64,000 nt of DNA from Yuukianura sp. NJ FZ-2021 (Eukaryota): the NCBI GenBank assembly GCA_046563655.1, contig CM102286.1, positions 3,472,001-3,536,000 of the forward strand, given 5' to 3'. Shown here in pieces: positions 4,951 to 50,600 of the stretch. The first letter of the stretch is position 1; every line of letters begins with the position of its first letter. Below the pieces are notes generated by a model, which searched no databases, had not been told where the DNA came from, and worked only from the letters and a program-made list of their open reading frames with translations. Both the position numbers and the translations under genes were made by a program.

Positions 4951-5246
4951 CATTGAAATTGAAAAATGGCGTGGCTCAGCGTAGGAAGGTCGTACAATGA
5001 CCCACAATATATCAAACTTTAGGAAAAGACTTGATCTAGTACCCTGTCGGAGAAAATTACACAATTTTAGTTCTAACTGTGAAAAAAATTGACTCAAACA
5101 TTCCACCCCCATATTTACATAGATAGAACTAAAATTTTGTAATTTTCTCCGACAGGGTACTAGATCAAGTCTTTTCCTAAAGTTTGATATATTGTTGGTC
5201 ATTGTACGACCTTCCTACGCTGATCCAGACCATTTTCCATTTGATG
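4951..5246. repeat. Long near-perfect inverted repeat (foldback/MITE-like), arms about 125 bp, loop about 30 bp
   Basis: TCAGCGTAGGAAGGTCGTACAATGACCCACAATATATCAAACTTTAGGAAAAGACTTGATCTAGTACCCTGTCGGAGAAAATTAC (4976-5060) recurs as a reverse complement at about 5139-5223 with about 1 mismatch. Confidence 0.9.
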
Positions 5247-8523: not shown

Positions 8524-8689
8524 CCTACATCCTGTCTTGAAATGAATTAATCTCTTATCTGCTATTACTGTAATACTAATACTGAAATCTGGATTAGATT
8601 ACCGATTGGTTTGTTTATTCTCATGTTGTTGCATTTCATGATGTAATTGAAAGGAAATTAAACTGCAAACACTGTATCACTTCACTGTA

Positions 8690-11028
8690 TCACTTTCTAG
8701 TGATACTTTGGAAGTATCGTTCATACGCTCGATCAGCAGCTACTGAACCGTAGATTGGTGCATATCCGGAGTGCTCAACGTAACCATTCTGTTCTTGATA
8801 TTGACGCAGAGTCACTCGACGGGAAGTGGCGTTTTGAGCAATTGTCCGGGTTCCTTGGAGTGCTCGTTTGACACTTTTGGCAGCCATTTCTTTTCTTCTG
8901 GCCTCTTCTGGACCCAACTTTCTTGCAGCGATCAGTCGTTCCCTCATCTGTTCCAAACTGATTTCTTCATCTGCTTTTGTCCTCTTTACAGCAACTTCCG
9001 TAACTGGTGCTGATAGTACTGGAGCCGTAGTTGTGGATGCTTGCGCTGAAGACGCACTAGCAGCGGCAGCAGCTTCCTTCGCTTCTGCGGCTCGTTTTAG
9101 TAACCTCTTCTTCTTCTTTCGTCTCCTTGCCTTTTCTTCTTGGATTTCCTGGAGGCCAGTAAATAAATCTGTTAAAAATAGAATTCAAACTGGAGAATTG
9201 AATTGAATAATTCGATTTACCCGGATCTTCTTAGCCTGTGGAGGCGGGACGGATTATTCCGTTGTTCCGCTGATTGGATTCCACCGATCTTCATCAACCC
9301 CACCACTAAACCAGCAAAACCTTACTCAGGATACCTTTAGCATCACTACTGTTTAGCGGAAACTCCAAAAATCAGGTCGGAAATTGGCATTACGGTACGA
9401 AATTTTAGAACAAAAATCAACATATATTTTCAGGATTTCCTACTACCCCTAGGAAGGTTAGGAAATGGAACCATTTGTGTCCAAAACTGTTGCAAACCGC
9501 AGCAGCAGTTTCGCGGCCAGCATAACCTGAAATACCTACCGGGTGGGGCCCACTTCTCGCGTGTTTTTGAATTTCCCACCTTATTGCAGTGATGCTGGAG
9601 GCAAAATTAAGTAAGGTATTACGGGTTTGTTGGAGTTCAAGAGTTTGATTAACCAAGATCAGCGGAATCCAATCAGCGATATCAGCGGAATAATCCGTCC
9701 CTTAAGGCGCTCAAAAAGAAAGTCAATGAGTCTGATGGCTTCAAGTTTCCGTCGAGCGATTAAATACTTTCGTTCTTCCATGGCAATTTTCAGATCCATG
9801 TCACCAGCATCTTTATCTTTTCCGGAAGTGTCTTCCGCTTCGCCTGTTTTCGAACTAGATTAGCAATATTTTAGTGTTAAAAAAAATAGACACTAGGTTA
9901 AAAAATTTGGCTTTCGGAAGGAACTACTAACGTGATTGCTGTAGCAGTAGATTTTGCTCCAGTTTTTTTCTCATCTTGTCCTGGAAGAGATTGTAGCTTT
10001 CTAATTTCAGACTCACGTTGATTGATAGAATCTTCGCTTAAATGTTTCGTTTTATCGAAATCCACCTGATAATTTTAAGAAATGAACTATGAACTTAAAA
10101 AAACTCAAATTGTTAAGCGAACAATTTGTCCCAGACCTTAATTGAAGTAACGAATAATTTTTCATCCTCCTTGTGAGCTAGAAATGATCCTCTCAGGGCA
10201 TCCATGGCCTTCACGAAACCCAAGTACTCTTTGTACTGAACATATCCTTCAAATACACGATCGAGATTGAAGCTGAAAGTTTTTATCCCGGATAAACTAG
10301 GCTTCATTTTGTTCCTGTATGGATCCAACATCGGGATGTCAACACATCGAACTTCTCCAAATACTTCCCAGACTCTGCGAAACATTCGTTCAGAAGGCCT
10401 TGCTGCTGGGTCAATTTCACATGGTTCCTTCCCTCCTTTGGAGGAATCCTTCGACTTTGCGTCGCGGAACCAGTCAATGGGAAGGTTTTGAAAATGAATT
10501 GTATCTGGTCGTTCCCCCGCCTTCATTTCATTCATATTTCGAGCATCCCGAAAAAACGAATCCCAGTCGTATTTGGAAGGAAACGAAATCTTTGTCTCGG
10601 CACAAAAAATTTTCAATGGTTCTTTGATTCCAGTCACCTTCATTTTCTTTCCTGCAGATTTTAGAAAACAAATCACGTAATTAGTCGAACAGTTTTTGTA
10701 ACGTCCCCAAGCACTTACCGTCAAGTCTTCCCACAATACTTTTCAAAACAGTTCGGTTTTCCAGGTCGCCTTCAAATCTAATAAATTCCAAAGTGTTCTT
10801 CACAGTCTTGATAGATATAAATTCGTCCGGTGCTACGAGAGTTTTCAATTTTTCCATAATCCCCCAACTGGAGACATTTGTTCCACCGCTTGGAATTGAG
10901 TGTTTGAGTGTAGGGAAGTGAATTGTGATATTGATTCTGGACATTGGTTTTAGAAACAGATTCCCTGGAGTGTATAGCTCTGATACGTCAGTAATGTCTC
11001 GAGATTCGTGCATCGATGACAATTTCAT
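8690..11028 (-). CDS. AKAP17A: A-kinase anchor protein 17A (splicing factor XE7/SFRS17A)
   Basis: Family motifs LFLKPMSRINITIHFP, SWGIMEKLK, EFIRFEGDLEN, MNEMKAGERPDTIH, VDIPMLDPYR, VDFDKTKHLS and EERKYLIARRKLEAIRLI are present. Exons are about 11028-10719, 10654-10136, 10065-9932, 9854-9701, 9235-9221 and 9148-8690. Joining the last two exons requires removing the MITE. Confidence 0.92.
9247..9700. mobile_element. Mutator-like MITE within AKAP17A coding sequence (candidate introner)
   Basis: TIRs are GGACGGATTATTCCG-n6/7-CGCTGATTGGATTCC at both ends, with patchy inverted similarity for over 100 bp. Minus-strand flanks are CGCCTTAAG and CGCCTCCACAG, read as a decayed 9-bp TSD. Confidence 0.85.
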
Positions 11029-12214
11029 CTTGACAGGTCAGGACTAGGGTTCACAGTCCGTCCGAAGTTATTCCAAACGTTAGCTGTAGAAACATTAGAT
11101 TCACAAATTCATTGTTAATTTTGAATTTTAACCAATAAATGAAATAAATCTAGAAGAGAATTAAACGAAAAACAGCCACAACAAAAGTACATAAATTCCA
11201 GAATTACAAGAAGCTTACCATAAAAATCTCACCCGAGAACAACCGTAGAGAGACTAACAAAAATTAACTGCTTTCCGCTTACGTAGTTAACTACTTAGAA
11301 CTTCAATTAATCAATACATACAATGACATAACTAATTTCGCAATTTGAAATTGTTTTGTTTTTTATTGAACTTGACTTGAACATTGACATTGAATTTATT
11401 TGATACATTTTTTTATAAAAATTTCTTTATGAATTATGAATTTCGCGCTCTTTTCTCGGAGAAAGTTTTTCAGCGTCCTTTTCTTATCGAAACAGAATTT
11501 TTTTTTGTGGAAATGTTCAATTTATTCGACTTTTTTTTTAGTAGAGGAGGTCAATCTATTATAGTAACAACCAAAAAATAATTGCTTTATTTTTTGAATT
11601 CGACAATGTGTAATGTAAAACTGGAAAACAGAAACTTTTTTAATTTTCATGTCCAACTTTAGTCGCTTTTAGTTTTAATCTAGTTATCAAAGTAAATGAT
11701 AAAGGATATGAGCCGAACATAACCTTTAAATTTTTAATAATTTATTACAGGAAAATTATCTACTCTGACTATTTCCATCAAACTACATTTTGTCGCATTA
11801 AAAATTTTCGAAATTTTTGAAATGTAAGCCAACTCAGGACTCGGACTTACAAACAAATGATTGACTTGTGTTAACGAAATTTACATAGCTCGATATTTTG
11901 GTTACACTTACGCAGAGCTTATTTATACAATGCTAGTTTAAGTAAAAATTTTAAAATGTTAAATAATATTATTTATAAGCAGGTACATTTCTAAAGGCCT
12001 AGTTTTTTTTTTAAAAAGCACATATTGAAACATTGAGGTAAAGCAAAACAATAAATTTGTAATAAAATGTGAGCTTATGTATTAGTATAATTTGTGCACG
12101 CACATATTTTTAGTCGTGTCAAGAGTATTTTTGCACTAGTGCAAGGAATTTCAGAGATGTAAACCACAATTTCCACAAAGAAGCTAAGCAACCGATGAGA
12201 CTATCGATTTTCTG

Positions 12215-18565: not shown

Positions 18566-21007
18566 ATGTATTTACGGAGCCAGTTACCGCTGATTCGGTC
18601 ATACCTGGTCCAGTCAATCATAGTTGTTAATTTTCTTTACCTTTTAATACATTACGCGGATACCATAATTTCGCTAACAGTAAATTCTGATAAGAGAAAC
18701 GACTACGCAACGTTATCCACACAAAACCAAAACTCTTCTTTTGATTACATAGTTGGTAAGAATTTACCATTAATTTACTCTAAAACGTTACAAAATCACT
18801 GCGGTGATAAATTTATGTTTCGTACAATGTAGTTGGAGCGGGTTCAGCGGGATCGATTGTTGCTAGTCGACTAGCAGAGAATGCTTCGATTAACGTTCTG
18901 TTGTTAGAAGCCGGTGGAAAACCAAGTCCAGTTACACAAATGCCTACGCTTGGTTTCATTCTGAATTTTCGAGCGACATCATGGAGGTATCGCACAGTAC
19001 CACAAAAGAATGCCTCTAGGGGTCTCAATGGCCAGGTTAATCCTAAGTTAACGAATTCGTATATTATCCAACGTTATATTCATTTATGTTATTGCCGCCA
19101 CTTTAATGATTATCGTGTATCTGTATTAGATTGTTCATTGGCCTGGCGGAAAAGGTTTGGGCGGATCTTCTTTAATAAATGCCGGGATATTCATCCGTGG
19201 AAATATTCAAGGCTATGATTTAATGGCAAAGAGGACAGGAGATCCAATATGGAAATCCGAAAACATTTTAGAATTTTATAAGAAAGTGGAAGCATATAAC
19301 GGCCTTTTTGATAAAGGTACATAAAGGTGTAATGGACACCGTTGCAAACCACAAAGCCTAACTACACAACATTATGTTTCACTCATTGCAGATATGCATG
19401 GTAAAAATGGAGATTTGAACATTGAAGCACCAGCGGTTGTACCGCTAACTAAAATTTTGCTGGAAGCGGGAGAGGAGCTGGGGTACCGGACAAGAGACCC
19501 TAATGCCAAAGATGTTCTCGAAGAAGGTACAAATTTTCTTAAAATGATAAATAAATTTGAATACTGTAAAACAAAGCGATTTGGTTGTGAAGGATTTGCC
19601 CAAATCGAGTCGTACACTAGGTTTGGCAGACGGGCAGATACATACCACGCTACGTTAAAGAAAAATTTGCACAGAACAAATTTAGTGGTACGAAAATATT
19701 CTTTTGTAACAAGACTACTATTTCGTCCCGATGTGCAAAACGAAGTTATTGGTGTTGAATACGAACGGCATGGAAAAACATACACTGCAACAGCTACGAA
19801 GCAAACAATTTTATGTGCCGGTAGTCTGTCGACACCTAAAATCTTAATGTTGTCCGGAATAGGACCAAAGAAACATCTTGAGAAAATGCAGGTAAGTCCA
19901 TTGAAGTTTTCTTCAGTAAGTATTTCTAACACTTTTTCATTTCTTACACTTTATTTTCTAGATACCAGTACGAGTAGATTTACCAGTAGGCCGAAGGTTA
20001 CAAGATAAATACGGAGCTTTAGTAGGCCCCTTCATCGTCCCGGAAGGCTACTCCTTCAATTTTGAACGTGATGTGAACATCTCAAGTATTTATGATTGGA
20101 TAGTACATGGAGGTGGTTTGCTCAACTCTGCCAGAGCTGAAGCCACTTTTTCAGTTTTGAGTGACACTGCAAAACGGACGGGAGATACCTACGCTCCGAA
20201 TGTTCATAGCTACATCTTGTCTCAGACGCCTATCAGTCCAGAAACCGTCTTTGGATTAAGTTTTAACTTTAACCAAGTCAGCTTAGACTACATGTCCAGA
20301 TCAGTCCAATATGGCGACGGATTTTTTCAGCTCGTGACGATGAGTCGGTCCGTTGGAACGGGAACGTTACAACTTCGAGATAATAATCCACATACTCCTG
20401 TGGAGATTGATCCAAAATACTTGCAAAATCAACTGGATATGAGAACATTGGTAGAAGGTAAGCCATTTTCAATAAAACGAGAATGGATCTGTCAATCCTC
20501 TAAAATTTTATTTTTGTACGCAGGGATAAGGTTCTCGGTGGACGTTATTGAGAAAACAAAGGCTATGCAATCCATTAATGCTCATTTGTTCCGAGAGCCA
20601 TTTCCTGGTTGCGAAAGTCATCACTTCAAATCGGATGCTTATTACGAGTGTCTTGCACGACATACTACAATAAGTGCCTACAAGTACTGCGGTACTGCTC
20701 CCATAGGGACCAGCGATGACCCAGAGGCAGTCGTTGACTCCAGGTTTCGGTAATAAAATTTCTGTTTTTATATATTTATTCACTTATACTTTATTTACAT
20801 AATTTAAAAATAAGTATCGTGTTTAGAACATCTTGACAAATGTTATATACCAATTTTACTATTTCCACTTTCAGTGTTTTGGGTACGAAGGGTCTTCGCG
20901 TCATTGATGGATCGCTATTGAGAATCAATGAAGTCAATACAAATGATGTAACAATGCGCATGGTTGGAGAACTCGGCGCCTCCGTACTCAAAATGGATTG
21001 GACATGA
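18566..21007 (+). CDS. GMC oxidoreductase (glucose dehydrogenase-like), copy 1
   Basis: FDYIV|VGAGSAGSIVASRL, VLLLEAGG, WPGGKGLGGSS, ILCAGSLSTPKILMLSGIGP, DPEAVVDSRF and GLRVIDGS are present, with an N-terminal hydrophobic segment and about 8 exons. Confidence 0.93.
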
Positions 21008-22520: not shown

Positions 22521-25354
22521 ATGTACTTACGGAGTCAGTTACCCTTGATTCGGTTACACCTCTTACAGTCAATCATAGTTGTTCCTTTTCTTTACCTGTT
22601 AATTCGTTATGCGGATACCCTCGTTTCGCTAACAGCACATTTTGATCGGAGAGACGACTACGCGACGCTATCTACTCAAAACCAAGACTCTTTTTTTGAT
22701 TACATAATTGGTAAGAAAGTGCTTACCATTTATTTATTCCAAAATGTTATAAAGGTCATTTCGATATGTTTTTGTTCAACGTAGTTGGGGCGGGTTCAGC
22801 TGGATCAATTGTTGCAAGTCGACTAGCAGAGAATGGTTCGATTAAAGTTCTATTGTTAGAAGCCGGCGGAAAACCAAGTCCAATGACACAAATGCCTACG
22901 GTTGCTTTCATGCTGAGCAATCGAGCGTCGCAAGACTGGAGGTATCGCACAGTTCCACAGAAGAATGCCTCCATGGGTCTCAACGGACAGGTTAGCCTTA
23001 AGTTAACCAAATAGCATCTTATGTGCAGTTATATTTCTGTGTATTACGATCACATTAATGATTCTTGTGACATAGGTTGTACATTGGCCCGGCGGAAAAG
23101 GTTTGGGTGGATCTTCTGTAATAAATGGTCTGATATTCATCCGTGGAAATATTCAGGGCTATGACTTAATGGCAAAAAGGACTGGAGACGCAATATGGAA
23201 ATCCGAAAATATTGTAAAATTTTATAAGAAAGTGGAAACATATAACGGCCTTTTTGATAAAGGTACATGACATAGAGTTGCAGTACGCACCATTACAAAC
23301 AGAAAACGTAACTACAAACACATATACAAATATATTTCTATGTCTACGTGTGCTAAGTTACATATGTGCTTGGTGGTGTGCAAGTATATATGCAACAGTA
23401 CTTTTATACATAAAGGTTTGTATACCGACGTACAGCTTACTATGTATATTTACATCTGTACATCGTATACTACACATTCATGCAGACCTTCGTACATACA
23501 ACTAGTACTATTTGCATATATTAGAAACGCATGTTATGCAAATGTGTATAATATACATAGCGTAGCATGTACATGTAGAAATATTGTGTAGTACGCTATA
23601 TTTAGAAACACAACTTTAACAATATAGCAAAATTAACAATATTTAACAAGTACCTAGTACTTAAATTTATCGTTTTTTGTAGATTTGCATGGTAAAAATG
23701 GAGATTTGACCATAGAAGCTCCAGCGGTTGTACCGCTAACTAAAATTTTGTTGGAAGCTGGAGAAGAGATGGGATACCCATCACGAGACCCTAATGCCAA
23801 AAATGTTCTCGAGGAAGGTAAAAATCTTTTTGAAATTACAAAAACTTTGAATGCCATAAAGCAAAGCACTGTTGTTGTCAAGGATTTGCCCAAATCGAGT
23901 CCTACACTAGGTTTGGTAGGCGGGCAGATACATACCACGCTACGTTAAGGAAAAATTTGCACAGAACAAATTTAGTTGTGCGAAAATTTTCTTTCGTAAC
24001 AAGGCTGCTATTTCGTCCTGGTGTAGAAAATGAAGTTATTGGCGTTGAATACGAACGGCATGGAAAAACTTACACTGCAACAGCTTCGAAACAAACAATT
24101 CTATGTGCCGGTAGTCTGTCGACGCCTAAAATTTTAATGTTGTCTGGAATAGGACCGAAGAAACATCTTGAGAAAATGCAGGTAAGTCCATTGAAGTTTT
24201 CTTCAGTAACCTTTCTTAGGTGTTCTTAAGTAAACTTTTAAAACGAGAAGGGAAGTTTTTAGTAGAAAGTATTATTCGCACATTTTCATTTCTTACATTG
24301 TATTTTCTTAGATACCAGTACGAGTAGATCTACCAGTAGGTCAAAGGTTACAAGATAAATACGGGGCCTTAGTAGGCCCGTTCGTCGTCCCCGAAGGCTA
24401 CTCCTTTAACTTTGAGCGTGACGTTAATATCTCAAGTATTTATGATTGGTTCTTACATGGGGGTGGTTTGCTCAACTCTGCCAGAACTGAAGCCACTTTT
24501 GCAGTGTTGAGTGAGACTGCAAAAAGAACGGGAGATACTTACGCACCGAATGTTCATAGCTACATCTTGTCTCAGACGCCTATCAGTCCAGAAACTCTCT
24601 TCGGATTAAATTTCAACTTTAACCAAGTCAGCTTAGACTACATGTCCAGATCAGTCCAATATGGCGACGGATTTTTTCAGCTCGTAACGATGAGCCGTTC
24701 TGTTGGGACAGGAACGCTACAACTTCGAGATAATAACCCACGTACTCCTGTGGAGATTGATCCAAAATACTTGCAAAATCAACAGGACTTGACAACATTG
24801 GTAGAAGGTAGACCATTTTCAATCAAAGCTGAATATAAAATAATTGCTAATTTTTTAAAACTTGTATTTTTGTACGCAGGGATAAGGTTCTCTGTGGACG
24901 TTGTTGAGAAAACAAAGGCTATGCAGGCTATTAATGCTCATTTGTTCCAAGATCCATTTCCTGGCTGCGAAAGTCATCAGTTCAAATCGGATGGTTACTA
25001 CGAATGTCTCGCACGACATACTACAATAAGTGCCTACAAATACTGCGGTACTGCTCCAATAGGGACAATCGATGACCCAGAAGCAGTTGTTGACTCAAGG
25101 TTTCGGTAATAAAGTTTTTATAATTCTTTCACTTATGCTTTGTTTGCGTTATTTAAAATTACTTATTGCTTTAGAACATTGCCCCAAACTTTTTAGTAAA
25201 TTTTACCTGTTCCACTTTCAGTGTTTTGGGTACGAAGGGTCTTCGAGTGATTGATGGATCGCTGTTGAGAATCAATGAAGTCAATACAAACGATGTAACA
25301 GTGCGCATGGTTGGAGAACTCGGAGCCTCCGTTGTTAAAATGGATTGGACGTGA
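22521..25354 (+). CDS. GMC oxidoreductase (glucose dehydrogenase-like), copy 2 (tandem duplicate)
   Basis: It has the same motifs and exon structure as copy 1, with high identity extending into upstream sequence (about 22240-22520 vs 18310-18565). Confidence 0.93.
23316..23612. repeat. About 290-bp TA/CA-rich insertion in intron 3 of GMC copy 2
   Basis: It is absent from the 75-nt paralogous intron of copy 1 and is bounded by the direct repeat AAACACA (23316-23322, 23606-23612). Confidence 0.6.
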
Positions 25355-31952: not shown

Positions 31953-34611
31953 TTATCGAACAGCGTCATACCCACCCTTGAGACCATCTTTTGTTAAAAC
32001 AATTTGCCACAAGTTAAGTTTTCGTGCAAAAAAGGCTCCAGCTGAAGTGTCCAAATAGAACTTCCACATTCGATAAAATGTTGGACCATACTTGGCTTCC
32101 AATTTTGGCCAAGCTTCGTCAAACTTTTGACTCCAAGCGAGCAGTGTGTCTCCGTAGTAAGAACCAAAGTTGTGCCAGTCTTCAATAACAAACAGACTTT
32201 GCATGGCATTTGTAACGTCGCAGTAGTAAGGAATTTCTCCATTGGGAAAAATGTACTTCAGCGTCCATGGATCCTTCCGTTCCATCCGAGGATCATGAAC
32301 GCCAATTGTATGCAACAAAAATATGCCGTCTTCAATAAGGCAACGATTTGCGACTTCAAAATATTCGCGGTAGTTTTTGCTCCCAACGTGTTCAAACATT
32401 CCAACAGAAACGATTCTGTCAAATTTTTCATTCAGTGTTCGGTAATCTTGGACTCGAATGTCAACCGGCAGGCCTGCGCAGAAGTTTCGCGCATATTCGG
32501 CTCCCTCTTTGCCAATAGTTACTCCCACTACGGAGACTCCGTAATTTTTGGATAAGTGTTTAGCTAGGCCACCCCATCCACAGCCGATATCCAACACCTT
32601 CATGCCTGGTTCCAGTTTCAACTTTTTGGCAATCAGTTCCAGTTTGGCAGTTTGTGCTTCAGTTAAATTTGTAGCATTTTTCCAGTAGCCACAAGAGTAA
32701 CTCATGGACGGATCCAAGAAGGCTTCGAAGAGATCATTCCCTAAAACACGCAAAAAAAATATGAAAATTAAAAAAAAAATGGTCGAATTTTTCCATTTCA
32801 TGCTGTAAATTACTTCTAAGCAACCACAGAAATTCGTCTCACGGTAACTCGTTATGAAAATTACGCTTGAAAAATTTCTTTATTGACCAAGCACTTACCT
32901 GTGTCATAATGGCTGGATACTTCAAATGCTTTTCCCAGCGTCTGCATGTTGAATAGTCCATGCCTGAGGTAGCTAACGATGCTGTTTCGAAACGAAGTAG
33001 CTTCTTTGTACATTTCACTTTTTAGCATCAGATACATAAATTTTTCCAAAGATTTGCATTCCCATAGTCCTACAATTGAAAAAAGCAGGTTTACTAAGAG
33101 TCCGAATATAATTATGGACTTGAGACTCTGTATTAACAGCAGTGTTCTTCCAGCTACATCAAAATAGGTGGAAGTATCCACTTATCCATTTTATCCAGCC
33201 ATTTCTTCCAGATAAAACTGGATGAAATATATTATCCACTGGATATCCGCTGGACGAAATGTCAAAAAAGTGGATATACAGCATTCCTCCTTAACGGTAT
33301 TGTATTTACAAGAAAAAAATTGTACAAAAAATGGACTTTCTTGAACACATGAACCTAAGTTAAGCATACGTGTGATTCTAAAGTTAAATGCATGCCAATA
33401 TAAAGTTAATTTGTGATTTTTGTGAAGTTCTATTGCTGGTAATTTATGTGTGGAAAAGAAAAGTGGGGTGCTTTGCGTTTGGAAAAAGTCATGGGATCAA
33501 AACCTAGCCTAACCTTTCACCCTCTTTATGACTCAAACGTAGCATATTGCGGTTGTTTTTGGTTTTTTTTTTTGGCTAATATCAAAGTTGAGGTTTAATT
33601 TCAACTACTAATCGCAAACCGCAAAAACTTTCAATTGCTTTCAGTTTGGTGTATGTATAAAAACTAATCTTGTAATAGTTGAGCTTATCTGAACAATTTA
33701 GCGGCAAAGTCCTAATGATAAATTGAAACATTTTGAGTTAGGATTTAGGAATAGCATATTGGGTTTGCCAACGTGAATATTGGTAAATTTCCATTCTACT
33801 ATACCATATAACGTCAAGTTGCACAAACGCAAAAATTTACGCATTTCCGAACATTCAAACGGTAGACTCCAATTTCTATGCTCAAAAGCTTTCCTTCAGA
33901 GAGTTTTATTAGTCTTTGCGTGTCTCTGAATTGTCCAAGATGTCAAAGTGTCCAACATGACATAGTACTGTAATTTACTTCCAACCGTCCATTCATGACT
34001 CTTTGACGGAAAAATGTCTCAACGCACGAAACGATGTCATTAATCTAACTCTATCTCGGAGTGAAATAGCTTTAGAGAAAGAAAGTGTCCGGGAGTACAG
34101 AAATAAAAATGATTACGGAAAAAACCGAAATTTTGAACTGCTTTCATTTTGACGTTACGCATATTTTTTAGGAACAAAATAAAACCAAATTGCGCAATAA
34201 AGCGACTCCGAAATTATAGTTCCCTTGCTTCACAAATTTTTGTCAAAAGGAGAAAGTTCTGTTCAAAGTGAAAGTCTAAACACAAAGACCTTAATGAAAC
34301 AAATGCCCAGAACATTTTTCTTCAAACGCGCTTTACTTTTCATGTTTGACTTTACCCTCCATGTACATTTCTCCCAGTCCAAGTTCGAGATCACAGGCGA
34401 CACGAACAATCCATTCCTTTTCATGGCCAGCCTTGATTGTAATTCCCGCCGGACCGGTTCCGTCTAAATGAATTCCAGCTTGCCTGTATTTAGTTGTCAC
34501 AAGACTTTTGGCCAGTGGGAACAAAATGGTGGACAGAAGGAAGCGTTCCAAGGCCTTGTAGGCTCCCAAGGCCCCTTGAACCACTGTGTATAGGAAATGT
34601 GTCACTTCCAT
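31953..34611 (-). CDS. cfa: Cyclopropane-fatty-acyl-phospholipid synthase, bacterial Cfa type, 2 introns
   Basis: LGLGEMYMEG|LWEC, LFNMQT, HYDT|GNDLF..LDPSMSYSCGYW, VLDIGCGWGG, FDRIVSVGMFEHVG, FLLHTIG, DPWTLKYIFPNG and EDWHNFG match E. coli Cfa motifs as recalled. Confidence 0.95.
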
Positions 34612-41623: not shown

Positions 41624-44600
41624 ATGTCAGCGGACACCGATACCTCCATGACTGATGAAAGCGGTGAAGAGAGTAAAGTGCTACTGGTACGTCAGCTGAT
41701 TTTTATTTCATACACTGTATGCCATACACATACAGTGTATGCTAAACAGCCTGTAATATTGACGAACATAATCTGTCTATGACTAGGTGCTTTCCAAACT
41801 GGCTGACATCGAAGGTCAAGGCAAATTCGACGATAAGAAATGTCGTGCCGTTTTGGATCTCTGGGATGAATTTTCAACAATTAATCCCGATTTATTCTCC
41901 AGCTATATAGATATATTCAAGCGTTTGGCAAAGTAAGTCATAATTCATCTTACCATCTGATCCAGTTCTCTGTTAGACCAATGTTTTCTCCAATGTAACG
42001 ATACTAGTTAACCTTAATTCAATTCTATTTTCAGAATTGTATCTCGCACGATTCTGGGTGGACTTTGGGCGAAGTTGAGGGAGACAAAGAATGAGAGGTT
42101 ACGCGAAAATACTTCACGGGTTCAAAGGTATCTGGAAAGAGGTCCTGGAGACGCGAAGGCTCATTGCGACGCAATATCGTCGTTACTGGACGCCAGCCCC
42201 TGGACTAAACCAACCGTCCAGGCTATTATGAACTCAAAGGACGACGAATCATCATTGGAGAAAAGTATTTCCTCAGTTTCCATACTTCCAGTAGTATTTT
42301 GTCTTTAATAATTTTTGGCTCAGCAGTAACCAGTATATGTGTTGTTTAGTTGATACCTTGCTCAAGGAAGAGGGGTGGATGCTAATACAATCTCGCTTGG
42401 AAACTCTGACCGGTCTTCCCGAGCAATTACTGGCTGCCTTTACTGAAGCGTGTGTCCTTATAGCTCAAGCACAATCCACCAGCGATGCAATTGACAGCAG
42501 CGATTCATTCCATCATCTACCGCTGGAGAGATACTACGAAATATTAACACTCTTTTGCGTCATAATTGCAAGGAAATGGCAACCAGCTAATAATGTAAGA
42601 GAATTTTAGAAAAAGAAGACGAAATCCACGGAGCACATATAATTATTCTGCGTATTCTTTCAGGATCTTTTACATAGAAAATTGAAGCCATACTTAACTC
42701 AGCCACGCTTAGTCATTGAAGTCGCCAATCGCTTGCTTCAGAAGGAGCAAACATCTCGACTTCAGCCAAGTTGGAAAGGTTGGAAAAGCTGTCAAGACCT
42801 TTGCCTTCCTATTCTGGAAATGGCGATGATTAACTGCAACGAGTCAGAAGTGGAAGAATCAGACTTAAATCATGTGTTCCAGCTGTGTTTGAGCTTTCAC
42901 TATCAAGTCAAACGTCGGCCGTCCAATGGTCTTCCGCTGCTACTTAAAATCGTGCAACCAGCTGATACTCCTGAATCAGTATCGGAATTGGAGAAAGTGC
43001 TTCCAGAGAAACTGAACTTTTTATGCGAAACAGCTGTGAGAAATGAGTACGCGTACAAATATGGGGACTGGGTGGTAGATTTTGTAAGTTAAATACAAAG
43101 ATTACGGACTTTTTAACAAATTATTTGCCTACTAAATAACTCTCGTGAATTTTTAGTATGGACTGAACAAAGCCACACGAGCCAAGTGTGTCGACTTATA
43201 TTTGAGCCGAATATCCATAGATGTGTCAAAACTGCTCACTATGAAGGAATTTGAAGTTGACAAAGACGATGAACAAGAAGAGCGGAAGATATTTGTACAA
43301 CTGAACCAGTCATTGGGAACTGCTTTCAATTCAATAGCAAAATACTTCACTGGCAATCCGCAAGTTACTTTTGAGATACGACTGACCGCCTTTTCTCTAA
43401 ATCCTACCCAGGAAGGATTGGATATTCTCCGCCAAATGACCAGCGATCCAAACTCTCCAATTGATTTAAGAACAAAATTATCTAGAAGTCACAACGAGGG
43501 GCTTGATCTCCCTGTAGGCTTATTTACTGACTTTACCAACATGGTGTTTGCGGCCCGAGTCAACCGGTTGACATGCTTCCGTGACAGTATCGACAACTTT
43601 AGCGAGATGTGCCAACGACATTTGTCCACTGGTGGGAACGATATACGCAGAAGAAGTCAACTGGATTTGGCCAAACCCACTGATTATACTATCTACGAAG
43701 GCCTTCAGCCTGCCTTTGATGAGGACGACATGGGCTATGAAGCTGGTTATTTACCAAATGAAGAGGATTTGGCTGAACTGTACATGGAGGAAGAAACTGG
43801 CCAAAAGCAAAATCGAGTTAGAGAACCAAGGTCACGCATGAACTTCATATACAGTCGAAGGAGACTGATGAAAAAGGCGGCTCTAAATGGGACGGCGATA
43901 TTGGGCAATAAGATCAGGAGGAAACGCTTGAGAGATCAAAGTGACGGGACTATCTTAACTGGACTCAAACCGCAGAAACGAACTTATGTAAGGAAACTGA
44001 AGACTGTGGATGGAGATGAAAAGCCGAAAATAAGAAGACAGTATGGGCGGAGGCGGAAACCGACGGATGGAAGACTGAAAACAAATGACACAAAGCTTTC
44101 AAAAGCCTCACTTCTGAGACTCGGCGGGATGAAACCAGTTATAAAGCTAATCAACTTGAAGGAACAGATACTGACACCGTCCGACGCTGAACCAACAAGT
44201 GAAGCTGTCGCTGCAAAATTAAGACGTGCGAACCGACCTGCCCGGAAACGCAAGGCATCTGTCAGCTCTAACAATTCTGCTGATGCAGCTGAGTCCAATC
44301 AAAGTCGATCGGCATACAAACGCGGAGACATTTCAACATGCGCAATTGTGGCAAGGCAGACAGCTTTTTGCAACAACGGGAAAAGTGGAATTTGGCCATC
44401 AAGTAGATCTGCTGGAATGGTCAACGACCTAATGTGTTTTCCACAACTTCCTACACAGTTTCCAGTGAACGGATCCGAAGTTGAGGGGATGACATATCAT
44501 CTCTCTGCCTCTTTGTATTATGTGCTCAGGGGCCTGAAGCCATTGACCACTGGAAGTATTGAAGCAATTGCTCAGAAGTACACAGACTTAAGTGACATTG

Positions 44601-47600
44601 TGCTAGCGAATCAAAACGTACAACCCATCCATTCCTATTCGCATTCACCGATTGTCTGGCGGAAGTACATGGGAGACAAAATTGAAGTTAATGACAGTCA
44701 AGGCGATGTAGTTCCTGGAGAAACGGAAAAACTGAATGCTAATTTACCTCCAGCGGTAACAAATTCTGTTCTCTCTCTACTATTGCAAGAATCACATAGA
44801 CTGGACCCCGAAGTAGCAGTAGAAGCAGACGTGAACTTTGATCCCGCAACAGTTTCTTCAAGTTTTGATTCTGGAGATATCGCAGACTCTATCTCCAGGG
44901 CAGATGTCAATGCAGAACTGTTCCCCAGCCCAGACCCGGATCCACTGAATCTCCAGTATGAACTTACGTTGCCACCTAGCTCAGTTTCTGTTGCAGTTGC
45001 TTTGAGTGATAGCGGGTGAGATCATCTTTTGTATTTCTCGTTAAACATTTTCTTATCATTTATACATGTAATGTTAATACAATTATGAATAATGCCTGAC
45101 TGTATGAAATTGTTTTGCTTATTAAATAGCGAAAGCTATTTTATAATAGGATTCATGTCTGTCTGTCTGTGCGAAAAAGTGGGGGAACCCACCCCGACTC
45201 TTCCTGGAAGGGGGGTCGAAAAATGGGGGAGGGGCCACCATACATGTAAACCTCGAGTTTTCCTTTTGTACTTTTGTATAGGTGACCTTGACCTTTGACC
45301 TGGGGTTCTGGAGATATAGACCTTAGAAGTTGCATAATGGCGTCGCTCATGCTATTCGCGTCTATAACTCCAGAACCACTGGACCGATTTTCAATCTGTT
45401 TTTCTTCACATTTGCGTTTCACATGTCCCAGGGTTGTCTAATCACAATCAGTGTCCAGCTTGACCGGAGGTTGTCCAGGTCCAGGTCAAACGTCAAGGTC
45501 GAATAATGTATTGACGGAACTCGAAAAAATGGCCTCTAGAAAAGTTGTTTATCTTATTGGGCTGAACAACTTTTGTAAAGGTGTCCTTACCTTGACCTCT
45601 GATCTACGGTTACAGAGATACAGACGAAGTTGCAAAATTGCGTCCCTCGTCCTACTTGGGAAGCATGACTTACTTTATGTTTTTCCCCGAGTCTGTCTGT
45701 CTGTCCGTCTCTCCGTCTGCCTGTCTGCACTATAACCATACCTCCGAAACCCATAGACCGATTTGTAATCTGTCTTCGTAGATCAGTTTGTCATAGCCTG
45801 GGGGGGGGGGGGGTGACTAATACGGTTCCCGTTTGACCGGAAGTGCACAATTTCCTGGTTGTGCACTCTAGCCTCCTCTCGCTACTTACGTATGCCGTTT
45901 ACAATGGTTTATTAAATAGCGAAAGCTATTTAATAATCTGATTCATGTCTGTCTGTCTGTCTGTCCGTCCGTCCGTACCCAGCAATTATCTCGGAACCTA
46001 CCTGACCAATTTTCCCCGGGTTTTCATCAGTGGACATCCCATGACGGCCTCCAGATCAAGTTTGTTTTTGTTTCCGGGTCTATGACCTTTTAATGGGTCA
46101 AAGGTCAAGGTCATTGACCTTTTGAATATAAAACCGGGAAAATGACCCTAACAAAAGTTGTTCCTCTCATTGAGGGGAACAACTTTGGTATATGAACCAT
46201 GGGTCTCTGACCCCTCCAAGGGGGTCAAAAACGGGATCAAAGGTCAACATATTAAAATACACTTTGCATGGGTTAGGCAAGCCGTCTACCTTGCTCATGC
46301 ACATACAAGGCAGAGATCCTAGCCCTGCCGTAATAGCCATTCAACCCAAGAGGACCCACTCCCCCTGGGGGGAACCACCCTACTCCCGGGGGGCGGGAAA
46401 GTGGCGGAGAAGCCCCGCGCCCCCAGGGGTGTGGAGCGAATACGTGGGGTGACACTCCCACTCCCCCCAGGGGGCGGGAAAGTGGTGGAACACCCCCCCC
46501 CCCCGCACTTCCTGCGGTGCGGAGCGAAAAAATGGGGGGAACACGCCCACTCTCCCTGGGTGGGGCGGGAAAGTGGGAAAGTGGGGGGAACCCACCCCCA
46601 CTCCCCGGGGGGAGGGGGCGTGTGAGTGTGGAAAATGGTGGGGAATGTTGGAATGTAGGGGAAACGGGGAAGAATACGGGGAAAAGAGTGAGTACCCACC
46701 CCCCACATTCCCCACCTGGGGGAAAACCATCTATTGGCTTGAGCTATTTCGTTATGTGCGGTTTACAACCGGTTTATTTTCTAATCAAAATCAATTACAT
46801 ACTACTTTCTGGTTTAGGAATGATGCTAACTATAACAGCGAAATATTCGAAAAACTGACGGACATTTTGCCATCATCACTAATTGAGGAGTTGGAGCAGG
46901 GAGCGAAATGGCCTAAAAATTCAGATACTTCATCCAGTAGCATCGCAGCAGTTTGTTACAATTCTACAATGCTTTTGCTTGGAGACAATGATTCAACCAT
47001 CACCATAAGCGATGAAGGTTTGAGCTCGTCAGAATCTGAACTACCAATTGTTGCCCAAGCAGAACGTTATTTTGGACAGAAAACAGAAGAATCTCAAAAT
47101 GACCAGGCTCATACGCTGGAAGATCTCGGGACTGGTAAATCTGAAGATACATTTCTCTCTCCTCGGCCTTGCACATATTCCGTTCCACTTCCATTGCGGC
47201 AAGTAACGAATGAGACTTTCGGAGACTTGGAGGAGCACAATACTGATGTTCTGAAGGAGACAAATATTGAAGAAATCAGCACGAAAATTCAAAAAACAAA
47301 TTACACCGAGGCCGATGAGATAAACCGACAAGACGTGGTGATGCAGACTCTTAGCGAACTTGTTTCTGCTACGTCGTCACCGGAAGTTGGGTCCACAGAT
47401 GATAGCTCTCCAAATCCGATCCAGACCTTTCCGAAAGTCTTGACGGAACCTTGGGATGTCGAGGACAATATGACACCGGCAATCGAGGAGGTGGCAATAC
47501 CGATGGCGGATTGTTCAAGTGAAGCTGAGATTCATAAAGAAATAGTCCCCGAGCCTGTTTCCGAATGTAATCCAAGTATCGAGGAGCTGCGAGATGCTCC

Positions 47601-50600
47601 TGCCATTGAAGTGGACAACCATCTGAATAACGGGGAGCACGCGGTTTTCCCACCGACGGCACCAGACGAGTCAAACGAGTTCAATGAAACTGTTATTCCA
47701 GATTCGTTTGTTAGACTGTCGCCAATACCTGCTGATGTACTTTCCACTTCTAAAAGACGACGGAAAGGAAAGAGAATCATAAGGAGAAAGATTGTGAAGA
47801 GAAAGAAACGACGAGAAGAGAAAATACCCAGCGAAGAACCGAATAACTCGAATTCAGTTCCTTCTGATCCTAACCTTGCCGCAACTACAAGCTCTTCCGT
47901 ATCAACGACGGCAATAGACTCTAACTCTCCGTCTTCAAGCCTTGCCGCGACGGTAATACTGAAAGAATGCACAGTTCGTTTGACTCGGCTCAAGCCAGAA
48001 GAATTTCCTTCATCTAGCGTCCCGAGTACAACTAGCGCCAGCACATCAACTGAAACTTTAGAAATAGGAACGTCGCCGAATGATCTGAAGAATGGCAAGA
48101 CAAAACCAAAGCAGAAGAATCGAAGTCCAAGAGGGGATTTTCATGACTACTATGAAGAAACTGAACCGTCGTCAGGAGGTGACAGTGATGCCGATGCCTT
48201 GTCTGAGTACGTTCCTTCGGATGACGAAGCTGCTTATTCTTCTGATGACCAATCGAAGCGTGCATCGGTACTGCTAAGCCCGTCCGTTATGAAAAGGACC
48301 GCCACAAACAATGTAGTAGTGAACTGGCCAACTGCAAATCCTGCAATTGTCAAAAGACCCGGGACAAATTCGTCAGTTGTGAGACGACTAGCTCCAAAAC
48401 CTTCAGTTACGAAAAAAGCTGTTCCATACCACCGTCCTTCAGTCGTCAGAAAGCCCATTCCAAACTTACGCATTCCGAAACCAAAAAATGATGACTCGGA
48501 GATATGGGCAAATCCAGTTGGAACCACCCAACCTACTCTTCATCCGTTTCCTGAAGTATACCGTATCATTGGTCACGAAACTTTGGCGAAGAACGTGACG
48601 GAGAAGGACGTGGTGGAAACAATTGATTTGGTTTCATCTGATGACGAAGGCGATGAATCCAGTTCCCAGTCGAATTGTGTTCTTCCCGATGATGGTGACA
48701 ACGACGCTGTGAGTGAAAACGAAATGGAAGTGGAAGAACCGAAAATAGGAGCATATGAAGTTGAAGTCAATTTGGATCCGACATTTATTTTGGGCGAAGA
48801 TGAAGAAGATCGTCTAGACTCCACTTTCTGTTTCGGTCCAGATCAAGTCTTGTATTTCACACAAAATACTGCGAGACAAGGTCGAAAACAATCTTTCCCG
48901 AATGCAACGATTGAGATACTTCAAGTCACAAATGAGGAACAACAGGAAGAAGATTTACAAAACTGTGTAAGCAATGGGAATCTGACTGCTAGGAATCCAT
49001 GGAGCCGTAAACAGTCGCTGGGTTCTGGTAACCCGAGTCCCGTTTCACTGCCCGTTCAGATTCTGGGGGAAATCATCAATGGAACGGAATTTGTGCCGTT
49101 TTCGGGAGACGAACTAATTTTACCGGATTTGGCTGGTGAGGTGAATGCATTACTCTAAACTTCCTTAGTATTAGAATCAATGTTGTATATATAAAAAAAT
49201 ATAGTTTCAACTTGTTTTAGACAGTGATAACTCCGAGAAGGATGCGATTCTAGAAGGGACAATGCAAAATTCCTGTGACGATGGCGAAGGAAAGACCCAG
49301 CGTGAAGGTGGGGATGTAGAAGCTGAAAAACTAGAAGCAGGCAAGATTGACCTTGGAAATGGAAGTCATTCAAATGATGGCCAATTAGGAACGGAACACA
49401 GTTCGGCAGCGAACCTCGAAATGTTACGCGACGGTACAGAATCTAACCATGACTGTAGGACCGCGACCGAAAAAATCGAAACTCCATTTGATGTGGGACA
49501 ATTCAACACTGGCTGTACCACTCCCGATACCTCCCGATACCCCGATACATGTGATGTCGCAAAATCCAAAGCTGAGTCTACCACTGCCGATTTTGGAAGC
49601 TCATTCGATGTGGCAGGATCAAGTACTCACTATACCATCTCCAATGTCGGCACTTCATGTGATGTTTCACAACCTAACACTGACGGTTCCATTGATGATA
49701 CCGTAACTCCTTGTGATCCCACAACAGAACCTACCATTGACTGTACCTCTCCGGATTCAAAAATCTCATCAGATGCCAAAAAATGTAACGCTCACTATTG
49801 CAGCCCAGAAAGAGAAGCTCCATTTGATATCACAGAGCCAAGCGTTGGTTGTTCCATCTCCGATACGGAAACTCCATTTGACATCACAGAATGTTCACCC
49901 GCCGATGCAGAAACGCCATTTGATATCGCAGAACTAAAGATTGACTGTTCCACTGGCAATACCAGAGCTTCATTGGACACCGCAGAATCAAACATTGTCT
50001 GTTCCTCCTCCGATCCGGAAACTTCATGCGATTCCACAACAGAATCTAATATTACCTGTTCCTCTAATGATTACGGAACTCCATGCGATGGTCTCCTACT
50101 CGCCCGGTATGTGGCCATATATCGCTTTCATATTTTTTTTTCTATGACCAATTACTATCATAATATTATAGTAGTAATTAAGATAGGCCGGAAAATTAAG
50201 ATAAATCTTTTTTGGGACTTTAAAATCCTTAAAAACTTTGAAAAATCTTTTAGAAATTAAGATCCATCTTTTTCTACCAATTTTTCTAAATTTTGCAAGA
50301 TTTTGACAGCCGAAAATCTTTTCTTCTGCTAGAATTTTTCCACCGTCTGAGGAATCTCAGTTCCCGCTTACGTTTGATGCGTGAAATGGTGTGTTCTGAA
50401 GGTTTTTTGTTCTAAAAACTTCATTTTTGCTAATTCTTTTTGCAAAAGTGCAAAATGTGACTATGGAAAACTTCGCAATATCCATTGTGTCACATTTTGA
50501 ACTTGTTACATCAAATGATGAATTGATTAAATTTCAAGATTTTTGTAGTTTTTTAGAATTTTTTTTTGAGATTTTTTGGCTTATTTTCTTAGAGATTTTA

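Follow-up and report, generated by a model that had tools for sequence, protein, structure and literature searches.

How can a gene keep encoding its full-length protein once a transposon-like element has come to occupy the place of a splice donor? This question is raised by an AKAP17A-like gene located on the minus strand at positions 8690-11028 of a 64,000-nt stretch of DNA from Yuukianura sp. NJ FZ-2021 (assembly GCA_046563655.1, contig CM102286.1, forward-strand positions 3,472,001 to 3,536,000), which is called the window in the following and to which all coordinates refer. The fourth exon of the gene is directly followed by a 454-bp palindromic element resembling a miniature inverted-repeat transposable element (MITE). 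As judged from the sequence, the long isoform of the protein, with its basic cluster and C-terminal motif, is possible only if a segment of about 9700-9236, which consists almost entirely of this element, leaves the RNA.

A six-exon model of the gene gives a reading frame of 1587 nt (528 aa) with the following parts, slashes marking exon borders:

10719-11028, minus strand: exon 1, with the ATG at 11028-11026 and the donor TTGACG/GTAAGT; its listed haplotype differences are mostly synonymous
10137-10651, minus strand: exon 2, encoding the RNA-binding domain (Pfam PF25015 and homologues)
9932-10065, minus strand: exon 3, between GT-AG introns of 71 and 77 nt
9701-9854, minus strand: exon 4, ending in the conserved block AMEERKYLIARRKLEAIRLIDFLFERLK, with AAG (9703-9701) as its last codon
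9221-9235, minus strand: 15-nt micro-exon GCTAAGAAGATCCGG (AKKIR), with the donor CGG/GTAAAT
9149-9220, minus strand: GT-AG intron of 72 nt according to the gene model
8690-9148, minus strand: last exon of 152 codons plus stop, with the basic cluster KARRRKKKKRLLKR and the conserved C-terminal motif DRAYERYFQSI

Exon 2 matches the Pfam family PF25015 (RBD_AKAP-17A) with an E value of 3.9e-47 and 161 bits, and of the 1018 candidates from a search of a protein collection, 684 are relatives at E<=0.001, the closest being the transcript-derived P0001 (65% identity), followed by homologues from Folsomia candida (61%) and Orchesella (56%). By its AKAP-17A-type RNA-binding domain and the conserved helix after it, the predicted product is an AKAP17A orthologue. 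The homologue counts and alignments given below are drawn from 120 listed of the 684 relatives. The block at the end of exon 4 is conserved from molluscs to insects, and its anchor motif is present in 100 of the 120. If the segment 9700-9236 is left out, the resulting junction FERLK/AKKIR/EIQEEK aligns without gaps to 26 hand-picked homologues of the 120; P0001, the closest relative, reads FERVK DMAVK KEQEE at this place, so that AKKIR is aligned with DMAVK. The last exon terminates in DRAYERYFQSITRK, and the motif [DE]RAYE[KR]YF is found in 8 of the 120 homologues, being located close to the C-terminus in the three nearest ones. Used alone as a query (83-266 aa range), the last exon scored against none of 139 candidates, its tie to the family being given only by the C-terminal motif. 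Because of the ungapped junction and this shared motif, the last exon should be regarded as part of the AKAP17A protein, read in the same frame.

The region between exon 4 and the last exon reads, on the minus strand and in this order, GAGCGCCTTAAG (to 9701), GGACGGATTATTCCG and so forth to CGGAATAATCCGTCC (to 9247), CGCCTCCACAG, GCTAAGAAGATCCGG (to 9221) and GTAAATCG. Its parts are:

9247-9700, minus strand: palindromic, non-coding MITE-like element of 454 bp and 44% GC, forming the body of the segment 9700-9236
9686-9700, minus strand: 5' terminal inverted repeat (TIR) GGACGGATTATTCCG, whose first bases GG (9700-9699) occupy the place of the intron GT
9659-9661, minus strand: TGA that is in frame if the element is retained, the product ending in FERLK plus GRIIPLISLIGFR at 384 aa
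9361-9539, unstranded: hairpin apex; a second haplotype has 5 letters in its place, the joint 9360 to 9540 skipping 179 nt
9247-9261, minus strand: 3' TIR (CGGAATAATCCGTCC on the gene strand), the exact 15-nt complement of the 5' TIR
9236-9246, minus strand: 11-nt tail CGCCTCCACAG between element and micro-exon, with a pyrimidine-rich tract and the AG acceptor

Reading through past CTTAAG adds 13 residues, GRIIPLISLIGFR, before the TGA is reached, and the retention product terminates in RLKGRIIPLISLIGFR. The only GT dinucleotides in exon 4 before this stop are at 9804 and 9767, and the use of either as a donor would remove the conserved block YLIARRKLEAIRLIDFLFERLK; the next GT (9653) is already past the stop. 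Alternative canonical donors were therefore rejected, including the GC dinucleotides at 9710, 9708 and inside the TIR, all of which lie in poor contexts. The borders of the removable segment are AAG/GGACGG at the 5' side and CCTCCACAG/G at the 3' side, which means a GG in place of the donor and a good CAG acceptor. The four other introns of the gene are of the GT-AG type and measure 67-77 nt; this fifth segment measures 465 nt, 454 of which belong to the element, and it starts with GG rather than GT because the final base of the exon is immediately followed by the inverted repeat. Some further possibilities were considered and set aside. A U12-type AT-AC intron does not fit the borders, and a shift to GA...GG, which is possible on paper because G9700 equals G9235 and would yield the same mRNA, gives a worse intron than GG...AG. 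A-to-I editing was dropped, as it cannot convert GG to GU. A somatic, precise excision at the DNA level has nothing in its favour, and no contig with an empty site was found, contigs being apt to miss rare variants.

The element is of a MITE-like kind, as judged from its TIRs, small size and lack of coding capacity: the longest internal frame, of 94 aa, enters from the exon border, and no frame is convincing. Two copies of the 15-mer GGACGGATTATTCCG, and no more, are found in the 64 kb of the window (9247-9261, plus strand, and 9686-9700, minus strand); 0.04 occurrences are expected by chance, and 0/100 shuffles reach two. The inverted repeats match at 15/15 terminal positions, over 19 nt at 95% (9246-9264 and 9683-9701) and over about 46 nt at 87%, and the arms can be aligned over about 170 nt. 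The predicted RNA fold of 9720-9221 consists of a single long hairpin (-209.3 kcal/mol, z -11.65; 0/100 shuffles as stable), the terminal stem of which is unbroken for 16 bp, from G9701-C9246 to G9686-C9261, and thus starts with the last base of the exon. An Rfam scan of 8600-11100 at E<=1 gave no matches, hence no snoRNA, miRNA or ribozyme is indicated there. Within the window, the search for other copies of the element returned only self-matches. A scan of metagenome contigs with the TIR 15-mer found at least 120 loci with one match each, which are considered chance matches because none of 120 is alike beyond about 25 nt (E<=1e-3). Further copies are hinted at by some read contigs of the inner part of the element, which show 4-20 differences and are of another depth. 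The 5' arm also contains three subterminal direct repeats of ATCAGCGGAAT(C/A) at 9658-9692, spaced by 14 and 9 nt, which may be transposase-binding motifs.

TIRs beginning with G are associated with Mutator (or Merlin) transposons, the Mutator-like group being marked by long TIRs, a related transposase and a target site duplication (TSD) of 9-11 bp. A 9-bp TSD, tested with CGCCTTAAG against CGCCTCCAC, agrees at 6/9 positions (binomial p about 0.01, uncorrected for the lengths tried), and its derivation into the present CGCCTCCACAG would require a 2-nt indel. The first 5 nt of the tail are CGCCT, the same as the CGCCT found 9 nt before the element. It may be speculated that CGCCT is left over from a duplication of the exon end, and that CCACAG was the terminus of the old intron.

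Most of the layout described so far had been proposed in the initial annotation of this stretch and is borne out here: a 454-bp element with TIRs directly after CTTAAG (9701); its read-through to the TGA at 9661-9659 after 13 codons with no earlier GT inside; the micro-exon, the 72-nt intron and the last exon of about 152 codons; the GG and CAG borders; the restoration of the conserved frame by removal of 9700-9236; and a TIR hairpin able to bring the splice borders together. The ungapped junction it had reported against human AKAP17A holds with the 26 homologues, which replace the human comparison. Its description of the TIRs as decayed is contradicted by their exact 15-nt ends, and neither the 9-bp TSD turned acceptor nor the assignment to the Mutator-like elements is established by a 6/9 match.

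The age of this intron position can be addressed by comparison of the homologues, 100 of which could be anchored on the conserved block, while the 20 off-pattern ones were dropped. Fourteen of the 100 are short forms, which reach a stop no more than 60 residues past the same lysine and carry unrelated tails (P0017, P0021, P0039, P0045, P0048, P0058, P0061, P0069, P0080, P0087, P0093, P0095, P0101 and P0111). The residue next to the lysine is Val (GTN) in 13/14 short forms vs 19/86 long forms (Fisher p 5e-7), although the short-form sequences are mutually related and the count of 13/14 overstates their independence. One single transcriptome contains both a long form (ERVK/ATNK...) and a short form (ERVK/VKCS...), and short forms ending soon after ER[VL]K are widespread in crustacean-like transcriptomes. 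At the protein level, the Val signature is that of a retained phase-0 GT intron at the same position in copepod-like crustaceans and in a Lottia gene model, which makes the position an apparently ancestral one. An element inserted at an ancestral position would not have created the intron; it would have occupied an existing one and displaced its GT. Human XE7/AKAP17A is expressed as a short isoform of 385 aa and a long one of 695 aa (PMC1635291). The human short isoform resembles the retention product of 384 aa predicted here in lacking the C-terminal basic and arginine/serine-rich (RS) part from about the same place, but its stop is supplied by an alternative exon, and the equivalence of position is derived from length only (PMC1635291). 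Together, the short forms and the 385-aa human form suggest an ancient short/long isoform switch at this intron of AKAP17A.

Further evidence comes from public reads, namely DNA-like contigs of four runs from two studies covering 8650-11050, in which rare variants are not visible. None of these contigs skips an intron of AKAP17A. A haplotype lacking the hairpin apex is present in 4/4 runs, with one contig each in X1, X2, X4 and X5. Record 9 of X2 (8918-9746) shows 8+5 substitutions, the same numbers as the shorter record 3 of X1 (9135-9678), and all 13 must therefore lie inside 9135-9678. The apex-deleted haplotype thus shows no substitution in 8918-9134, in the outer TIR (9679-9700) or in the covered part of exon 4, from which it follows that it also carries GG. 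Compared with the window, 0/263 exon nucleotides are changed in it vs 13/365 intron and element nucleotides (Fisher p 0.001); the last exon shows no difference over 217 nt (8918-9134) between these two GG haplotypes, while intron and element differ by 3.6%. The downstream exon is under purifying selection in the GG-bearing haplotypes, which argues for the element being taken out in frame. Among the copies in general, 15 of the 20 listed exonic differences are synonymous and 5 non-synonymous.

An additional haplotype is a variant at the acceptor, the tail of which reads CGCCTCTCCAG, with changes at 9239 and 9240. A more diverged copy has, within 8918-9164, a 9-nt gap that keeps the frame as well as 28 differences; it departs from the window sequence at 9164 and rejoins it at 9700. 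On its gene strand it reads AAG/GTAC..., having a T at position +2 and thus a canonical donor; the letters after the GT are 83% identical (19/23) to the subterminal repeats of the element, about 13 nt of the outer TIR are missing, and the distance from anchor to anchor is about 579 nt vs 535 in the window. The same element-filled intron therefore exists in a copy with a canonical donor. The copy may be paralogous, belong to a very divergent haplotype or stem from a close relative among the sampled animals. The element is present in every haplotype covering the site, and no element-free, empty site was found among the contigs of the four runs, which do not show rare variants. One sample alone contains at least three or four versions of the locus, namely the window-like, the apex-deleted and the acceptor-variant one and the copy that is diverged by about 11-15% and has a similar word depth. 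These versions recur in a run labelled as another organism, which points to animals having been pooled, to a genome duplication or to a species complex. The initial annotation had allowed that the downstream exon might be unconstrained, which the comparison of 0/263 with 13/365 speaks against, and that reads might show GT at 9700-9699, which is the case for the diverged copy but, by the count argument, not for the second haplotype.

Tentatively, and at rather less than an even chance, the most likely mechanism appears to be a removal guided by the TIR hairpin, in which a non-GU 5' cut is joined to a canonical acceptor; we infer the excision itself as well as its machinery from DNA data. The 454-bp palindromic MITE would have taken over an old phase-0 intron of AKAP17A, the one that gives rise to a short isoform in other animals when it is retained or used alternatively. 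The hairpin would set both borders side by side, and a non-GU cut at or near the end of one TIR would be joined to the CAG acceptor 11 nt beyond the other. This arrangement would be that of hybrid SOS-spliceosome splicing, an AKAP-17-dependent reaction, and the diverged GT copy would represent a later stage, in which the transposon-filled intron has regained a normal donor.

SOS splicing has recently been described as removing DNA transposons from mRNAs (Zhao et al., Nature 2025; PMC12779559). Base-pairing of the inverted terminal repeats (ITRs) is necessary and sufficient for excision, the excision sites are located in or near the ITRs and rarely follow GU-AG, the reaction resists a spliceosome inhibitor, and worms as well as human cells need AKAP17A, CAAP1 and the ligase RTCB for it (PMC12779559). 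When a host donor is found at 3 nt from a Tc1 copy, or a host acceptor at 11 nt, AKAP-17-dependent hybrid splices arise, which join an ITR site to the canonical partner (PMC12779559). At the locus described here, the TIRs are predicted to pair, no usable GT or GC donor is present and the acceptor is 11 nt from the TIR; one of the SOS pathway proteins, AKAP17A, is encoded by the host gene itself. The closest likeness is to the hybrid SOS alleles Tc1::Ngfp and Tc1::dpy-19(n1347) of C. elegans, which also represent a transposon with pairing ITRs at a host splice site. Tc1 is 3 nt from the donor or 11 nt from the acceptor; the present element abuts the exon end (0 nt) and is separated from the acceptor by 11 nt. 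In all of these cases the transposon side offers no GU while the opposite site is canonical (PMC12779559). The Tc1 cases are laboratory alleles with RNA evidence and AKAP-17 dependence, whereas the present one is a natural allele known from DNA alone; moreover, its element is a non-autonomous palindrome of 454 bp rather than Tc1, and its host gene codes for the pathway factor AKAP17A (PMC12779559).

Several observations weigh against a hairpin-guided removal. The pathway has been shown only in C. elegans and human cells and is not yet known from arthropods, it is imprecise, with exonic insertions seemingly purged over time, and intronic Tc1 insertions are not SOS-spliced (PMC12779559). The border AAG/GGA also agrees with the GG donors known from a copepod, which are purely spliceosomal. 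Between the haplotypes, 8 paired positions of the hairpin are variable, of which 4 are kept as wobble pairs, 4 are broken and 0 show compensatory changes, and nothing shows selection on the stem. Finally, the GT-donor copy in the same runs might supply the long isoform.

Two of these points lead directly to rival explanations. The ordinary U2-type spliceosome might accept a G at +2 in the otherwise good donor AAG/GGA, with the hairpin only shortening the effective distance; we consider this possible but unlikely. In the copepod Eurytemora affinis, GA or GG donors account for about 12% of introns (36/297), the exon always ends in AG and A is almost always found at +3 (Robertson 2017; PMC5714493), and the present site has the same exon end and the same A at +3. 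Apart from +2, 6/8 positions match the donor consensus, the 3' end offers a pyrimidine tract and CAG, and an exact, ungapped frame is best explained by a single precise junction. The likeness to Eurytemora also includes the arthropod host, the ordinary acceptor and the need for the intron to be removed for a full-length protein. However, GG donors make up only about 0.014% of human introns (quoted in PMC5714493), and all other 11/11 junctions checked in the window use GT, 4 of them in this gene and 7 in two GMC-oxidoreductase paralogues. There is therefore no sign of a permissive genome, although in so small a sample (0/11 non-GT donors) a frequency of a few per cent could be missed. The GA/GG introns of Eurytemora are, moreover, frequent, new and lineage-specific, with no link to transposons reported in the main text, whereas the present case is one among 12 introns examined, is located at an old position and is made of a TIR element (PMC5714493). 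It is likewise unlikely, though to be taken seriously, that the element is not removed at all, yielding only the short product of 384 aa with RNA-binding domain and helix, or leading to nonsense-mediated decay, while the long isoform is supplied by the GT copy. The 14/100 short forms among the anchored homologues show a truncated isoform to be natural, the human 385-aa and 695-aa isoforms offer a parallel (PMC1635291), and the GT copy occurs in the same runs at similar word depth, which does not equal copy number. Set against this are the last exon, which is open for 152 codons with its conserved C-terminal motif kept and identical over 217 nt between the GG haplotypes, next to an intron and element differing by 3.6%, and the fact that neither AATAAA nor ATTAAA is present in 9701-9149 as an internal poly(A) signal for a short isoform.

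The initial annotation had favoured an introner, namely a Mutator-like MITE whose insertion into an unbroken coding exon gave rise to a new intron, with its acceptor AG derived from a duplicated 9-bp target; the empty site would then have been an uninterrupted exon reading CTTAAGGCTAAG. This appears quite improbable. It would account for an intron consisting of nothing but the element and an 11-nt tail (454/465 nt), for CGCCT both 9 nt before and directly after the element (6/9 match, p about 0.01, uncorrected), and for a 15-nt micro-exon beside a normal 72-nt intron as would be left where an element inserts 15 nt ahead of an old donor. There is also precedent in the Micromonas introners, in which a TSD has been co-opted as splice site (review PMC11282704). 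According to the same review, introners of Micromonas, Aureococcus, dinoflagellates and others share with the present case an intron made almost wholly of a TIR element and possibly one border from flanking duplicated sequence, but they form multi-copy families of new introns with canonical sites (PMC11282704). The main texts of Gozashti et al. 2022 and 2025, to the extent available, do not mention Collembola, springtails or arthropods, save for one mention of copepods. What speaks against an introner is, above all, that position and phase agree with the GT intron apparent in other arthropods and Lottia, as the Val in 13/14 short forms indicates at the protein level, so that a fresh insertion would have hit this place only by luck. 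The 9-bp TSD would need the 2-nt indel and is not significant once the lengths tried are allowed for, and no second element copy was found in the window or among the at least 120 metagenome 15-mer loci. An assembly or sequencing error at 9699, with GT as the true state, has next to no probability: the diverged copy does carry T at this position, but the G is part of an exact 15/15 inverted repeat, and the independent contig of the second haplotype shows no difference in 9679-9746, by the comparison of X2 record 9 with X1 record 3.

Some other features of the window are worth recording. A foldback-type element at 4957-5242, with inverted arms of 129 nt that are 92% complementary and a 28-nt loop, adjoins an arrestin-domain gene and is unrelated in sequence to the element in AKAP17A. 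The GMC-oxidoreductase paralogues are arranged in tandem at 18811-20750 and 22715-25351 (plus strand) and have matching GT-AG introns, one of which measures 420 nt in the second copy (23263-23682) vs 75 nt in the first (19317-19391), perhaps because of an insertion. At 31956-32879 (minus strand), a single uninterrupted frame of 308 aa matches PF02353 (E 1.3e-80), the mycolic-acid/cyclopropane-fatty-acid synthase family, named for bacterial mycolic-acid enzymes. Open frames of 620 and 901 aa at 43157-45016 and 46453-49155 (plus strand) look disordered and have no Pfam match; the region between them, 45119-46186, is rich in inverted repeats and contains an exact 18-nt pair, TGACCTTGACCTTTGACC.

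Transposon-filled introns with non-canonical borders derived from TIRs have been described in Fritillaria, Amoebophrya and euglenids (PMC11282704). In the tunicate Fritillaria borealis (Henriet et al. 2019), such MITE-derived introns are reported to occur genome-wide at species-specific positions, with fewer than 10% GT-AG introns, AG-AC or AG-AT ends and a modified spliceosome, whereas here a single locus with GG-AG borders at a conserved position is concerned (PMC11282704, 10.1101/2025.08.15.670264). The AKAP17A locus is thus a natural member among the known TIR-bordered introns, the GG donors of arthropods and the laboratory hybrid SOS splices. What is unusual is how its features combine: the intron is old, a TIR has overwritten its donor, the element persists across haplotypes with constraint on the exon behind it, a sister copy has GT, and the host gene codes for an excision factor.

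That the host gene is AKAP17A may be a coincidence; otherwise, it would be the first hint of the pathway regulating its own factor. A more far-reaching version, which we regard as improbable, is that the AKAP17A mRNA is a natural, maintained substrate of the AKAP17A-dependent SOS or hybrid pathway, with a self-referential loop setting the ratio of long to short form and with the GT copy as the next stage. The available part of the SOS paper contains no wording on autoregulation, feedback or arthropods (PMC12779559), and no other paper linking AKAP17A autoregulation to SOS splicing was found among the titles and abstract openings listed. If the proposal is true, AKAP17A would be needed to cut a transposon hairpin from its own mRNA, the long form being nuclear and carrying the C-terminal domain, and the GT copy would be an SOS-rescued transposon that has become an ordinary spliceosomal intron. 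The authors of the SOS study state that natural mammalian targets are not yet known and ask whether the protection is evolutionarily short-lived (PMC12779559). The locus bears on SOS splicing outside nematodes and human cells and on its natural, long-lived targets, and likewise on how a gene that looks essential may tolerate a transposon that destroys its donor. It also bears on the turning of such a rescue into a normal intron, since the two copies, with GG and GT at the same base, look like the states before and after.

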